Notes: generated by a model from the letters alone, not told the origin. Positions 1,751 through 61,214 are shown, numbered from the stretch's first letter. The stretch is DNA of 64,000 nt from Eledone cirrhosa (GCA_964016885.1 OZ024750.1:40052001-40116000); one strand, 5' to 3'. Translations and numbers: made by a program.

Positions 1751-2256
1751 TAAGTATGTATGTATACGTACATACATATATGTATACAGACGTACAGTAG
1801 CATGCATATATATACATATATATATATATATATATATATATACACATATATATACACATATGCATACAGGTACACACACATATATGCACGCATCAGTTTA
1901 GCCGACGTTTATTATAACGCCTGCTTTGTTCGTTTGTTTGTTCGTTCCTGTGTCAGTGTTGAACAAAAGGGTGACGTGGTTGCCTTAACACCGTATGGCA
2001 TAAATTCAGGCTGTTCGATTTAAAGCAGGCGTTATAATAAACGTCGGCTAAACTGATGCGTGCATATATGTGTGTGTACCTGTATGCATATGTGTATATA
2101 TATGTGTATATATATATATATATATATATGTATATATATGCATGCTACTGTACGTCTGTATACATATATGTATGTACGTATACATACATACTTACATTTA
2201 AGTAAGTGCCATACTAAGAGTGAGAAATGAAATTTTGTTTTCATTTTTTTCAACTT
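1751..2256 (+). mobile_element. (TA)n-flanked foldback element: ~175-bp inverted arms, ~95-bp spacer, ~60-bp unpaired tail
   Basis: 1751-1927 is the reverse complement of 2022-2193, apart from (TA)n length. (TA)n lies on both sides. Confidence 0.6.
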
Positions 2257-2400
2257 ATATATATATATATATATATATATATATATATATATATATATAT
2301 ACATATATATATACAAATGTAAACAAAACCCACAGCTCTCACTCTCACAAAGCGTAAACCTAATAACATTATGTACCATTTGAACTATATATATATATAT

Positions 2401-2582
2401 AACGAAGGAGGTGTGGTAATGAACCAGATGGACCATAACGCACCAGAGTACTCAATACTTAGGGTAGTAGAGTGGGTAATAAGAAAATGTTTAACTCCGA
2501 CAGCAGAGCTCAAGCCGTTTCGACGGCTATTTCTGGATGAGTCGAAACGGCTTCAGCTCTGCCGTCGGAGTTAAACATTTTC
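2401..2582 (-). mobile_element. Mini PLE-like element family A (inverted arm + 3' tail) in (TA)n
   Basis: Homologous to 4226-4366, 4872-5011 and 46815-46971. Internal hairpin at ~2489-2577. Confidence 0.65.
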
Positions 2583-2825
2583 ATATATATATATATATAT
2601 ATATATATATATATATATATATATATATATATATATATATATATATATATAGTAAGAATATTTTCGAAACAGCGAGCGGGTTTGAAATTATTATAAATGT
2701 AAGCTATCGCCGTATTTTGACTAAATAAATTAAAGAAATTATTTAGCCTGATAGTGGGGTTAAGAACCCTCGGAGAAATGGAAAAAGATGAGTATTGACG
2801 TACATGGGAGTCGAACCCACATCTT

Positions 2826-3030
2826 TGGTCAATAGAGACTTTTGACAATATCTGCTTGGTCAATAAAGAGACCTTTGACAATATCTGCTTGGTCAATAAA
2901 GAGACCTTTGACAATATCTGCTTGGTCAATAAAGAGACCTTTGACAATATCTGCTTGGTCAATAAAGAGACCTTTGACAATATCTGCTTGGTCAATAAAG
3001 AGACTTTTGACTATATCAGATCGGTCATCA
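2826..3030. repeat. 33-bp minisatellite (~6 copies) within a minus-strand tRNA-like SINE head
   Basis: Unit tttgacaatatctgcttggtcaataaagagacc. The adjacent ggagtcgaaccc is the reverse complement of a B-box. Confidence 0.75.
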
Positions 3031-3083
3031 AAGAATATGAGGGCTATAAAATAAAGTGGTAGTGATGTTCTCGGTTCTAAATA

Positions 3084-3428
3084 CAGTAGAACCCCGATTC
3101 ACGACCCCCCCCCCCCCCCCACCCGAATATAAATTGTCTCGGGTGACGAACAATGTCTCGAGTAACGAGAACACAAGCCAGCAACAATTGTTGGTGCCAA
3201 GCTGGGAGTATCAGTAGGAAAACGTAACTTGCTGTGTAGTTAGTTACTATGGTGATATCTATCTGTCTTTCACACAGTCTCCCCCCTCTCTCCCCCTCAC
3301 CCCCCTCTCTCTCTGTATTTCCCTCTCAACATTTCGTATGGGGAAAATCGTTTCAGTTTACGGATATTTCGGGTGACGAACGACCGACCTTCAGGAACAA
3401 AGTAAGTTCGGGAACTTAGGTTCCACTG
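3084..3428. mobile_element. Tigger/pogo-like MITE
   Basis: TA|cagtagaacc ... ggttccactg|TA terminal inverted repeats with TA target duplication. Confidence 0.75.
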
Positions 3429-3431
3429 TAG

Positions 3432-3605
3432 AATAATTATTCCTACATTTACCACAAGGCCAGTAATTTGAAGGGAAAGGGGGGGGGGTAAGTCGATTAC
3501 CAGTGCATTACTGGTACTTTATTTTATCGACCCCGTAAGGATGAAAAGCAAAGTTAACCTTGGCGGGATTTGAACTCAGAACGTAAAGAGCCATAACTAT
3601 GTGCC
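3432..3605 (-). mobile_element. Meta-domain tRNA-SINE, short-tail subfamily
   Basis: ctggtactttattttatcgaccccgtaaggatgaaa...gatttgaactcagaacg is the reverse complement of B-box + Meta domain. Confidence 0.75.
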
Positions 3606-3877
3606 AAAAAGCAGCAAAAGCAACAACAACGGAAACATCAACAGCAGCAGCTACAACAATAACAAAAACAACAACAACAACAACAACAGCGGTGGTAGTT
3701 ATATACACCTTTCAAGTTAGATGTAGGGTAAATCATGTTTATAAGGTTTTTGATAGCATCTGTCAGACGATAGCATCTGTCAGATATCTGTTCTGCCTGT
3801 CAGAAATATAAAACCTTGTTTTAGAGGTCAAATCTACGTAGTTTCACTGTTCTCTTCTCTACGTTGTTCCACGTCAG

Positions 3878-3946
3878 AATGTTGACACAGACATTGCATG
3901 ATAATGATGTTATTATATATAATGTCTGTGAGAGAAAGGTCAACAG
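3878..3946 (+). CDS. Candidate 69-nt internal exon (MLTQTLHDNDVIIYNVCERKVN)
   Basis: Pyrimidine tract then cacgtcAG acceptor, CAG|GTACTG donor, symmetric phase 2-2, unique non-repeat sequence. Confidence 0.35.
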
Positions 3947-58460: not shown

Positions 58461-58596
58461 CAATCATTTACATATTCATTTGCATATTCACCCATAAGTT
58501 GGAAAAATCTCTAATATATTTCCACTATCCAGTGAATTTCCAACCGATAAGGTATGATTTTCATGGGTATGTCTCTATTTATAAAACAAACTTTGT

Positions 58597-58657
58597 ATTT
58601 TATCTGAGGAAAGCGTACTAATGTGTCTTGGTACCCTTGAAATATATATAATAAAAT
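58597..58657 (+). ncRNA. Minimal type I hammerhead in a pLTR related to the intact PLE
   Basis: attttat-CTGAGGA-aagcgtacta...tggtaccctt-GAAA-tatata-TA-ataaaat. The downstream aaatatggttttataaatatagtt matches 57198 onward. Confidence 0.8.
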
Positions 58658-59240
58658 AAATATGGTTTTATAAATATAGTTTCCATTTATTTAATATCAT
58701 TGTATATATATATATATATATATATATATATATATATATATATATATATATATATATTTATATTGTAAAAAATTGAACGGGAACAAAACAGAGAGGCAGT
58801 ACGAACAAAGGTTTATTAGTTTCACGCTCTTGAGAGTGGGGTGGTGGTATATATATATATATATATATATATATATATAGAGAGAGAGAGAGAGAGAGGG
58901 GGGGGGAGTGTGTGTGTGGGAAAGACAGATAGATATTACCATAGTAACTAAATACACATCCTGCCGATACTCTCAGCTTGTCGTCAACTGTTGTTGTCGG
59001 CTTTACTCGAGACACCATTCGTTGTCGGCGTTACTCGAGACACCATTCGTGAACTGAGGTTGCACTGTATTTTGTTTGACTTATTTCGAGCTGTAAAGAC
59101 GGATATCCCCAAACTTTTGTATACAACGTTTACTACAATGTAAAGGAGAGAAGAAAAAACCGCGAAAAGTTGTCAATTTTTATATAAAGTAAATGAATGA
59201 CGTTTCAACTGATCTTCTCCACCTCCAACTAACTTACCCC

Positions 59241-59530
59241 CCACCTCTTGGTCGTGGCTGACAGGATAGAGGATAGATTATCCCAGAGGACAATGAGGGA
59301 GTCATGTTGGGATAGTCATACCACCTCTTGGTCGTGGCTGACAGGATAGAGGATAGATTATCCCAGAGGACAATGAGGGAGTCATGTTGGGATAGCCATA
59401 CCACCTCTTGGTCGTGGCTGACAGGATAGAGGATAGATTATCCCAGAGGACAGGAGGGGGCCACACTGGAACAGCCACTCCACCTCTTGGTCACGGCTGA
59501 CAGGACTGGAGTAGCCACTCCACCTCGCTG
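59241..59530. repeat. 80-bp tandem repeat (~3 copies plus degenerate parts)
   Basis: ccacctcttggtcgtggctgacagg recurs at 59241, 59321 and 59401. Confidence 0.9.
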
Positions 59531-59599
59531 GAGTCACAACTGTTGGAAGCCAATTCTGCTCTGATGGCAGTGAATAGGGATGTGGTCTGGGGACCAAGT

Positions 59600-59870
59600 A
59601 CACCAGAAGTTGCCATGGCTACAGGTTATACCACAAACCCCGCAAGGCTGGCACCTGCGAGCAGTGGATTCTGTTTCGATAGCAGAGGGTAGGGATGTGG
59701 TCCCGGGACCAAGAACGCTGGGAGTATCCACTGCTACAGGCTCTACCACTAATCTATCAGAGAGTAGCCGATACTTGGACAGTTTGCCCAGTTCGGCCTG
59801 ACGGGTAGCAGAGCCTCGGATGATGGCCGAACCCACCAGGTTGCCACTAGAGAAGGTGTCACCGCGTGTA
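59600..59870 (-). pseudogene. C-terminal restriction-like endonuclease fragment of a CRE-type non-LTR retrotransposon
   Basis: DTFSSGNL...GSATRQAELGKLSKYRLLSDRLVVEPVAVDT..VLGP fits the RLE K..KY..L....P.AVET.G..G pattern. Confidence 0.65.
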
Positions 59871-60964
59871 ACTAAATAAATGTGGTAATTGTCCTTAAAG
59901 TCAGATTTACTCATTAAAAAGGAATATCTGTGAGTGGTGACGTAATATTAACCACGAATACTGTAAATTCCGGTGGGTGGGCCACATTGTCATATATATC
60001 CTTTCAGATCTTTATTTATACATCAGATAGATAATATTTAGTCCAGCAGTGAACGAGGTTATATAATATATTGTCAGTCGTCAGCCGAACAATCAACTGT
60101 GTAATACAAGAGAGATATAAAAGGGGGTTGGGCTAATAATTAATGATGCACACATTCTGACATGTGAACCATTACGTCATACATGTTTACGTACATATTA
60201 CATTGTAATTGGTTGACGCAGTAGGTGAGTGGGGGGTGGGGGTGGATTTAAGGAAAGGTTAAAAAATAAGGTTGGAATTGATGATCATAGCAGCAGAATA
60301 TTAGCAATTTATACAATTGATATTATTAGATCATAAACTCCGATATTTCTATATATGACAGTTAGAGGGAATGACAAGTGTCAGCCGTGGTACCTGTAGG
60401 GGGCATACTATCCAAAAAAGTATATGTCTATATATATATATATATATAATGGCTGCCCCCTTGTTATCAAGTATGGCCATTGCACGATATACCATTATTA
60501 ATAATTATTAATTAATTCTATCGTGCAATGCCTGTGCGTGAAGATATTTTTTAAAGTGAGGAAAGACTGTGTACTGAGCCAATCCCACTCTCTGAGCGAC
60601 AGTAGCTATAAGCCGAAAGGAAGAAAAGATCAACATCATCGGTAACTACTGAGCTGTAGGTTTTATATCGGAGATATCCCAGTTTCCTGAGTTGCCTTCT
60701 CCTAGAAGAATGCCCTGACAAAGGCTAGGGGTCCTTCACTCCCAGTGGTTTAGCCACGCGATCGGGTATCCAGCCCGATTATATCTATGTCCCCGCGCAT
60801 ATACATACACATTCCCCCATGTATATACAACTATACATATACATACATTTGTACATGTGTATATACATATTTACACACTTTTGGATGGCCGTTGACTCTT
60901 ATAAGTTCTTCCACCTTTTGTTGGGTTTTGTTTTTTGTCAAAATGACCCTCCTCACCAAGTAAA

Positions 60965-61019
60965 CTTGGTGCTCTGGTGCGTTATGGTCCATCTGATTCC
61001 TTACCACACTTCCTTCGTT
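60965..61019 (+). mobile_element. 3' tail only of mini PLE family A
   Basis: ggtgcgttatggtccatctgattccttaccacacttccttcgt-(TA)n. Confidence 0.65.
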
Positions 61020-61080
61020 ATATATATATATATATATATATATATATATATATATATATATATATATATATATATATATA

Positions 61081-61214
61081 TTTATCCCGGGTTCAATCGG
61101 GGGGTAACCACAGTAAGTAAGGTACTCAATAAATAGCAGAGTATAAATATTTCCTGATGATTTCTCCCGAATGAAACAGTTCTAGTCCCGTAGAAGCCAT
61201 TTCTATTATATTTA
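61081..61214 (-). mobile_element. Mini PLE-like element (tail on minus; truncated hammerhead core on plus)
   Basis: Minus tail attgagtacc...-(TA)n. Plus strand CTGATGA-tttctcccgaat-GAAA-cagttc-TA lacks a stem I partner. (TA)n on both sides. Confidence 0.45.

Follow-up and report, generated by a model that had tools for sequence, protein, structure and literature searches.

A 64,000-nt stretch of Eledone cirrhosa DNA (GCA_964016885.1, OZ024750.1:40052001-40116000; the whole stretch is referred to as the window) was analysed. The window consists of AT-rich eukaryotic DNA, rich in simple repeats, and contains at 53586-57332 a Penelope-like element (PLE) which, judged by its sequence, is a 5'-truncated member of the Hydra clade. 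Downstream of its hammerhead, in the tail that runs into (TA)n, lies a short predicted bulged RNA hairpin. In most related families the hairpin occurs twice, between the hammerhead and the start codon, and copies of the elements tend to end just upstream of one or the other hairpin. The parts of the window PLE are the following, with positions counted from the first letter of the window (RT, reverse transcriptase; pLTR, pseudo-long terminal repeat).

53586-53884, minus strand: inverted tailless copy of the 3' pLTR, beginning at site 1 beside (TA)n; 299 nt, 98% identical to 56945-57240
53826-55529, plus strand: open frame of the 5'-truncated Hydra-clade PLE protein, with RT core, CxCX5C linker and GIY-YIG-type endonuclease; the genuine protein part begins at about 53885
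57133-57198, plus strand: minimal type I hammerhead (core CTGATGA at 57141, GAAA at 57179), with a palindromic TATATA in place of stem III and a predicted cut at about 57190
57240-57242, plus strand: site 1 (tailless end), 5-7 nt upstream of the hairpin; one TA is common to element and target
57243-57332, plus strand: tail of 90 nt, extending between site 1 and site 2 (the tailed end, which enters (TA)n)
57248-57270, plus strand: bulged hairpin copy 1, ACTC / 4-bp upper stem / TC bulge / GAGT / GCT

According to Craig et al. (2021; PMC8557442), the Hydra clade is defined by a C-terminal endonuclease, a CxCX5C linker, CxxC and CxH motifs, RWK and DKT motifs, a hammerhead and (TA)n targets. In the window PLE, the RT and a GIY-YIG-type endonuclease at the C-terminus are combined in one open reading frame (ORF), and the RT motif YRDD and the endonuclease residues align with those of relatives. 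The linker CNCRDRSKC corresponds to CxCX5C, and C-terminal CDLC (CxxC) and CKH (CxH) are present. RWK and DKT were found in the N-terminal part of full-length relatives, which is missing from the window copy. The element was assigned to the Hydra clade because its RT core, linker and CDLC/CKH, together with the RWK/DKT of the relatives, match the defining features; the hammerhead core predicted from the sequence at 57141 and the TA runs on either side agree with a hammerhead in the pLTR and (TA)n targeting. The protein search resulted in 30 relatives with 32-51% identity, the named match of highest identity being from Octopus sinensis (51% over 34% of the query), and a Hydra-clade family of Octopus bimaculoides is listed in PMC8557442. 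No family was matched in a Pfam search of the ORF. In a protein tree built from metagenome relatives, without published reference sequences, the window protein was placed on a long branch. TERT ranked first by E-value in a fold search with the predicted fold of a full-length relative, but this rank carries little weight, since the TM-score was only 0.31 and many RT folds were found alongside.

The original prediction for this DNA had stated that the inverted 5' copy of the PLE stops exactly where a tail of about 85 nt begins, and that the tail carries a GAGTGC motif and runs into (TA)n. This description was borne out: the arm stops at 57240-57242, and the tail, which is 90 nt long, contains gtCGAGTGCt (57263) and runs into (TA)n. 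Hammerhead cores (CTGANGA..GAAA) of the PLE were located at 57141 on the plus and 53685 on the minus strand. The hammerhead at 57133-57198 differs from the minimum free energy (MFE) fold; the MFE fold of the tail contains the lower stem, the bulge and three upper pairs. An Rfam search of the window gave no hammerhead match: none of the 126 matches reached the gathering score, and the sub-threshold ones were mostly of the microRNA type on palindromes and simple repeats.

Sequencing reads of the runs X1, X6 and X17 were placed on 56945-57334 at 85% likeness. In X17, 8011 raw reads, which are reduced-representation reads and give no copy count, diverge after 57222 and continue through site 1 into (TA)n with a consensus agreement of 0.73. 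Contigs of X1 (six) and X6 (one) end at 57327-57331 into TA, i.e. at site 2. Both end types, tailless and tailed, occur in other copies of the window PLE. Among the read variants listed, apart from 22 further ones, substitutions were located in the loop (57255, 57256, 57258, 57259) and at the Y of 57263, and the stretches 57247-57254 and 57264-57269 were free of them. The stems are retained in a subfamily whose loop is shorter (1485 reads).

The tail motif was originally given as YGAGTRC. As a stand-alone motif it was found not to be enriched, with 13 matches in the window vs 21.3 expected, and was for this reason dropped in favour of the hairpin. A positional enrichment was seen: 8 of the 13 matches lay 40-100 nt before a TA run, a zone which makes up 4% of the positions. 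With the short elements of family A (described below) counted once, the proportion was 5/10 (p = 2e-5). The exact motif was present at 2454-, 4313+, 4958+, 46918+, 57263+, 58077-, 35575- and 61128-, in all cases 47-79 nt before a TA run. From base complementarity, the motif is assigned to the 3' strand of a bulged hairpin with the grammar XCUC-(free upper stem)-UY bulge-GAGX'-RCU. YGAGTRC is the A-U variant found in this host, most other families having GCTC..TYGAGCACT.

For the other families, marine metagenome contigs were scanned; 372 stretches were confirmed and the best 78 loci were analysed, with 45 ORF clusters at 70% amino acid identity. Downstream of the metagenome hammerheads GCTC..TYGAGCACT was usually found twice, the second copy shortly before the ATG. 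Among the 19 clusters in which the hammerhead is followed by an ORF start, at least one motif was present in 17 and two motifs in 13, compared with 0.44 and 0.01, respectively, expected from dinucleotide shuffles. In the ORFs, 8 motifs were counted in 80,964 nt. Both misses among the 19 (L039 and L053) are sister families with TCTC..GAGA, a T-A lower pair, at both expected places. As GCTC and TCTC versions occur, and the window elements have ACTC..GAGT, the first lower pair is G-C, T-A or A-T. The spacing between copies 1 and 2 was 56-82 nt in 20 families, and the distance from copy 2 to the ATG was 20-47 nt. One Hydra family (L030:110-240) has just one hairpin ahead of the ATG and would be expected to give tailless ends only.

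A scan with the DNA motif only recovered two Hydra ORFs (L157 and L161), both with two complete hairpins and with the ATG 20-25 nt behind the second. These Hydra-clade PLE contigs lie within two records of bacterial metagenome-assembled genomes and are most likely mis-binned animal DNA. Among the published Hydra consensi (File S7 of PMC8557442), the hairpin was recognized by eye in 4/6, i.e. in Hydra-2_Amil, 1_Ajap (twice), 2_Ajap and 1_Crog (with the inner pair changed); Hydra-1_Obim is degenerate and Hydra-1_Amil is without the region. In viral contigs no relative was found, and the hairpin pattern matched three loci there, all without a PLE ORF. The proposal of a conserved cis signal in unrelated (TA)n-targeting PLE families is supported, and extends far beyond the window, although YGAGTRC is only one strand of the hairpin. 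The distance of the motif to the 3' end, as originally given, is replaced by the distance to the end point just upstream of the hairpin, the hairpin being duplicated in full-length elements.

To compare the hairpins, instances were selected on the basis of the lower stem plus the RC behind it, each cluster contributing one per copy. This resulted in 55 instances from 32 clusters, of which about 52 are independent, as L030 was entered twice and L071 is a mis-clustered relative of L074 (two instances). The 2-nt bulge on the 3' side was TT in 36, TC in 12, TA in 6 and AG in 1 of the 55 instances. With this bulge, the first upper pair closes in 54/55 (C-G 37, T-A 16, T-G 1). Bulge sizes of 0, 1, 3 and 4 were rejected, the first pair closing in only 1, 0, 8 and 16 of 55, respectively. 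The upper stem had at least two pairs in 42 and at least three pairs in 28 instances. The upper pairs totalled 145 vs 72 ± 6 for shuffled partners, and the observed total was reached in 0/5000 shuffles. The first upper pair switched between C-G and T-A six times on a quick tree, with at least three of the changes forced by starred branches. ACT follows the stem directly in 49/55. As a control, 69 pattern-matched loci from collections of prokaryotes and viruses were used, of which 67 had no PLE ORF; here 30 first pairs were non-Watson-Crick and only 6 stems had three or more pairs.

The ends of copies were mapped by script at 39 loci in which the 3' hammerhead region could be followed along a reference reaching the ORF start. 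Of these, 25 were scored as flanked ends and the other 14 were contig ends or tandem run-ons; since L004 and L005 are one insertion, the 25 ends represent 24 insertions. Ends 0-9 nt upstream of the stem were detected in 15/25 flanked ends and 14/24 insertions, with five mapped before copy 1 (tailless) and nine before copy 2 (tailed). Against a rough null of 11% the clustering had p = 2.5e-8. Inspection by eye of the other ten ends added L060 (0 nt, a long loop having been missed), L070 (3 nt, a poly-T slip) and L001 (10 nt) to the fitting ones. L010 and L077 run on and are no ends, L021 and L052 are without a close reference, and L030, L031 and L036 are genuine exceptions. L070 also starts at site 1 and forms one unit from site 1 to site 1. 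The hairpin grammar, the covarying pairs, the duplication and the end positions are direct observations.

The short elements of the window are the following.

2402-2583, minus strand: family A copy with inverted arm, sense arm and tail; hairpin at 2473 with a 4-bp upper stem
4227-4365, plus strand: family A copy in which almost nothing separates the inverted arm from the tail; hairpin at 4294
4873-5010, plus strand: family A copy, form as in the copy at 4227; hairpin at 4939
46817-46970, plus strand: family A foldback copy; arm end at 46890, hairpin at 46899
17438-17499, plus strand: tailless relative of family A, ending at site 1 into (TA)n; absent from the original list
60969-61018, plus strand: 3' portion of a tail of family A, with its end at site 2; absent from the original list
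58025-58462, minus strand: foldback element with a full hammerhead core in each arm; hairpin at 58112-58070 with a 6-bp upper stem and one lower-stem mismatch; the arm ends 0-3 nt upstream
58465-58702, plus strand: pLTR without a tail, from a relative of the ORF element (96% over 48 nt), with a hammerhead core at 58604 and its end at site 1
61082-61212, minus strand: inverted arm with hammerhead core (stem I cut off) and tail; hairpin at 61142 with a 2-bp upper stem
35360-35597, no strand assigned: two facing tail-like copies around (TA)n, with a weak hairpin match (one G-U upper pair); the plus copy begins 9-10 nt upstream of the stem
1753-2255, plus strand: foldback between (TA)n runs, with neither hammerhead core nor bulged hairpin; not counted as a member

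The presence of a hairpin with an end 0-10 nt upstream, a criterion defined in this analysis, was established for family A, the 58025 element and the 61081 element; it was weak in 35357 and absent in 1751 and 35195. In family A, which has the 4-bp upper stem, the arms and the tailless 17438 copy end 6-9 nt upstream of the stem position. In the 61081 element the final arm letters are identical to those immediately upstream of the stem. The window PLE, family A, 58025 and 61081 fit the hairpin grammar with an A-U lower pair. In 1751-2256 the arm extends into the putative stem; this site and the one at about 35195, both originally listed as weaker members, do not match the pattern that was given for them. 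The membership of 35357-35600 is doubtful: the exact motif stands before TA, but the hairpin is weak, and the insert consists of two tails forming a palindrome around (TA)n, in which neither a hammerhead nor an arm that stops at a tail is present. Its plus copy spans about site 1 to site 2, and this tail-only inverted duplication is not explained by simple priming. The loosened hairpin pattern also matches an abundant SINE-like repeat of the window (e.g. 3554-, 5775-, 11638+, 48022+), with 1-2 upper pairs only, and therefore weak matches such as 35357 are not trustworthy alone. At 34972-35230 (plus), inspection by eye showed a long-stem-II hammerhead, two worn hairpin-like sites and an ATG at roughly the usual spacing, and 33930-34247 (minus) is a decayed Hydra-type endonuclease remnant (tblastn E 1e-10); together the two are possibly an old full junction.

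The hammerheads ascribed to the short elements were found only in some of them. The 58025 element has cores at 58219- and 58358+, the 58465 element has one, and the 61081 element has one at 61154+ with stem I cut off; none was detected in 35357 and 1751. The search of the family A copies for CTGANGA..GAAA was negative, and they contain only the 3' half core (GAAAC, stem III, GUC). A fixed layout of arm, hammerhead and tail did not hold either: at 4226, 4872 and 61081 the inverted arm meets the tail, hardly any sense arm or none being present, and 35357 is the palindrome described above. In the within-window comparison, the sole short element matching the ORF element was 58465-58702. Two family A strings searched for in the supplement of PMC8557442, as far as it was available, were absent. 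The short elements may multiply on their own or may be truncated products of autonomous families not seen here; the four similar tailed family A copies within 64 kb would agree with both. Their identification as non-LTR retrozymes was rejected, the elements being single inserts between TA runs and not tandem units with full type I hammerheads.

Other features were noted in the window. The SINE-like repeat (SINE, short interspersed nuclear element) was located at 3554-, 5775-, 6315-, 11638+, 18031+, 18176+, 42029+, 48022+, 51922- and 52111-. Its 3' part contains AAGTACCAG, and the repeat is presumably similar to the Nin/Deu SINE domain. Hammerhead-like cores not followed by the Hydra hairpin also occur at 37388, 57918 and 9720; the core at 37388 looks like a different PLE type, and that at 57918 has a fold-back at its GAAA in the manner of family A. 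Elements starting with CTAG right at (TA)n (62103-62597, 14806, 61434), one of which forms a 186-nt inverted pair, probably belong to another family, of a Helitron-like or DNA type. Long minisatellite arrays with long spurious ORFs occupy 20594-32350 and 39500-41950 (one with a 33-nt unit, another encoding 11-residue repeats), and a part of the 20594-32350 array is apparently duplicated about 4.1 kb apart.

The layout of arm, hammerhead, optional tail and (TA)n is real but already published. An inverted 5'-truncated copy, an optional tail of 30-40 bp, a hammerhead and (TA)n targeting have been described in PLEs (PMC8557442); Hydra-clade elements share with the window PLE the endonuclease, CxCX5C, CxxC/CxH, the hammerhead and (TA)n, and one listed family has the inverted 5'-truncated copy. 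The tails determined here are 56-100 nt long compared with the 30-40 reported there. The same layout occurs in the Penelope elements of the rotifer Adineta vaga (Arkhipova et al. 2013, PMC3846280), where the tail is 31 bp and the passages available mention no conserved tail motif. Minimal hammerheads, pairs of hammerheads on opposite strands and the idea of a circular template have been presented in PMC4209133. Like the window elements, the non-LTR retrozymes and minimal PLE hammerheads (PMC4209133; bioRxiv 10.64898/2026.07.22.740005) are short non-coding pLTR-derived sequences with hammerheads, with opposite-strand pairs 100-700 bp apart; retrozymes are tandem with full hammerheads, in contrast to the single foldback or arm-tail inserts of the window, among which family A lacks half the core.

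A functional parallel is PAc, a Poseidon element from Anolis (Frangieh et al. 2024, PMC11167929), in which RT was shown in vitro to start internally at two sites bounding the tail. PAc requires RNA out to +172, with the distal start at +111-118, i.e. about 55 nt 3' of the distal site; the bound RNA motif remained unidentified in that work. The two systems are alike in having two internal starts that bound the tail, a need for RNA 3' of the start, an AT-rich target and an upstream hammerhead. They differ in that PAc belongs to another clade and its starts lie inside the ORF, whereas here the sites are in the 5' untranslated region and each is marked by a hairpin copy.

The hairpin, present twice between the hammerhead and the ATG, probably anchors the RT so that copying starts internally, at the UA-rich stretch just 5' of it. 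TAT or ATA was found within 10 nt upstream of the stem in 44/55 instances vs 13/55 control windows, although this count is slightly biased, the 5' strand having been chosen by upstream AT content where several fitted. The PLE protein would bind the hairpin on its own RNA and hold the UA-rich 5' stretch in the active site. The endonuclease would nick (TA)n, the nicked DNA 3' end would prime after pairing with a small number of UA letters located 5' of the stem, and cDNA synthesis would proceed from the priming point towards the hammerhead and the ORF. The used hairpin itself would not be copied. A start at copy 1 would give the tailless end, and a start at copy 2 an end including copy 1, which is the tail. 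In the window PLE, site 2 may have been the start of the direct copy and site 1 that of the inverted arm, with the second priming probably on the opposite strand and the two truncated products joined. A full unit would need a tandem or circular template, and a tailed short copy, which retains one hairpin, could be remobilised in trans. This geometry matches that of the Poseidon element, in which RNA 3' of the start is needed (PMC11167929).

An extended form of the anchoring reading is possible but rather doubtful. According to it, the two hairpins load two RT subunits on one RNA, which prime on opposite strands of the cut (TA)n, site 2 giving the tailed direct copy and site 1 the tailless inverted one, so that the insert of arm, body and tail, which is typical of PLEs, is built in one event. 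Within the sister group of telomerase, the hairpin would then play the part of a telomerase-like template anchor, and the tiny foldbacks would represent a class of parasites for which a 25-45-nt signal is sufficient. In telomerase RNA anchoring elements and in the 3' stem-loops of SINEs and long interspersed nuclear elements, a structured RNA beside the template fixes the RT start. No sequence relation to these is shown; the present signal differs in being duplicated and in its location 3' of an internal start.

Alternatively, the hairpin may guide RNA 3'-end formation, so that the transcript is cleaved or ends immediately 5' of the stem, and an ordinary RNA 3' end serves as the start for the RT. 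This predicts the identical two end positions, and RNA-seq read ends were reported at both start sites of PAc (PMC11167929). However, the only PLE tested in vitro initiated internally and required RNA 3' of the site (PMC11167929), and a cut would part the hairpin from the template; this explanation is considered unlikely. Comparably improbable is a recognition of the hairpin by the GIY-YIG endonuclease at the DNA level, in single-stranded cDNA or in the pLTR of the element itself; the enzyme would cut beside the hairpin in resolving an intermediate and trim or leave the tail. The tail has indeed been ascribed to endonuclease-mediated resolution (PMC8557442), the tail was needed for cleavage in earlier work with the D. 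virilis endonuclease (cited in PMC11167929), and a DNA-level unit would agree with the tail palindrome at 35357, which has both sites as its boundaries. The one-sided 2-nt bulge with free covarying upper pairs, however, suits a single-stranded nucleic acid and not duplex DNA, and the ends before copy 2 are without that hairpin in the inserted DNA; a weak point in the same direction is the count of G-U type pairs at upper positions 1-3, 12 vs 7 for their antisense equivalents.

A role in expression (internal promoter, translation start signal or help in hammerhead folding), with the ends arising incidentally by pairing of AT-rich sequence with (TA)n, would agree with the location of copy 2 at 20-47 nt before the ATG and with the AT-rich flanks. 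Yet the whole region from hammerhead to ATG is AT-rich and the ends cluster in two 10-nt windows, the clustered ends include non-TA flanks (L004, L032, L047, L075), and the short non-coding elements retain a fully paired hairpin. This explanation was considered very unlikely.

Several observations weigh against the anchoring of the RT by the hairpin, besides the reduced number of independent instances and the biased TAT/ATA count given above. L030, one of the exceptional ends, has one hairpin only. No second hairpin was seen downstream of site 2 for any window family, and the window tails, about 60-100 nt, are longer than the 56-82-nt copy spacing of the other families. No inverted arm starting at site 1 was detected in the metagenome loci, where the single antisense hammerhead (L027) runs into the ORF, and consequently the arm rule rests on this host. 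The folding stability of single hairpins was unremarkable (z of -0.1 to -1.95 for the member tails); the case for the hairpin rests on covariation. Family A and 58025 prefer other MFE folds, that of 58025 being a shorter alternative hairpin. In an exact-string search of the available supplement of PMC8557442, the core string was found in Naiad and Chlamys consensi only at internal places, and inspection by eye of the Poseidon initiation region (Fig. S1 of PMC11167929) revealed no such motif. The hairpin may be clade-specific and limited to the Hydra clade.

Whereas the clade and the layout were already known, the duplicated hairpin and its tie to the copy ends appear to be new. Neither feature is described in the available parts of PMC8557442, though the consensi contain the hairpin; the words 'stem-loop', 'hairpin' and 'bulge' do not occur in the main text searched. 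The literature searched and Rfam gave no description of a duplicated hairpin or of its tie to two ends, subscription papers and Repbase notes being outside the search.

The choice of the internal RT start and the optional tail of PLEs have been an open question, for which the in vitro work available located the sites and not the RNA signal. A short covarying motif, of which about 30 divergent families carry one copy for each start site, is a candidate for this signal, and the question becomes one of RNA mutagenesis. The hairpin also provides an annotation rule for the true ends of Hydra-clade elements and a way to find the elements and their non-coding derivatives from DNA only. Should the signal act on any RNA, it would amount to the minimal cargo handle for this class of retrotransposons.

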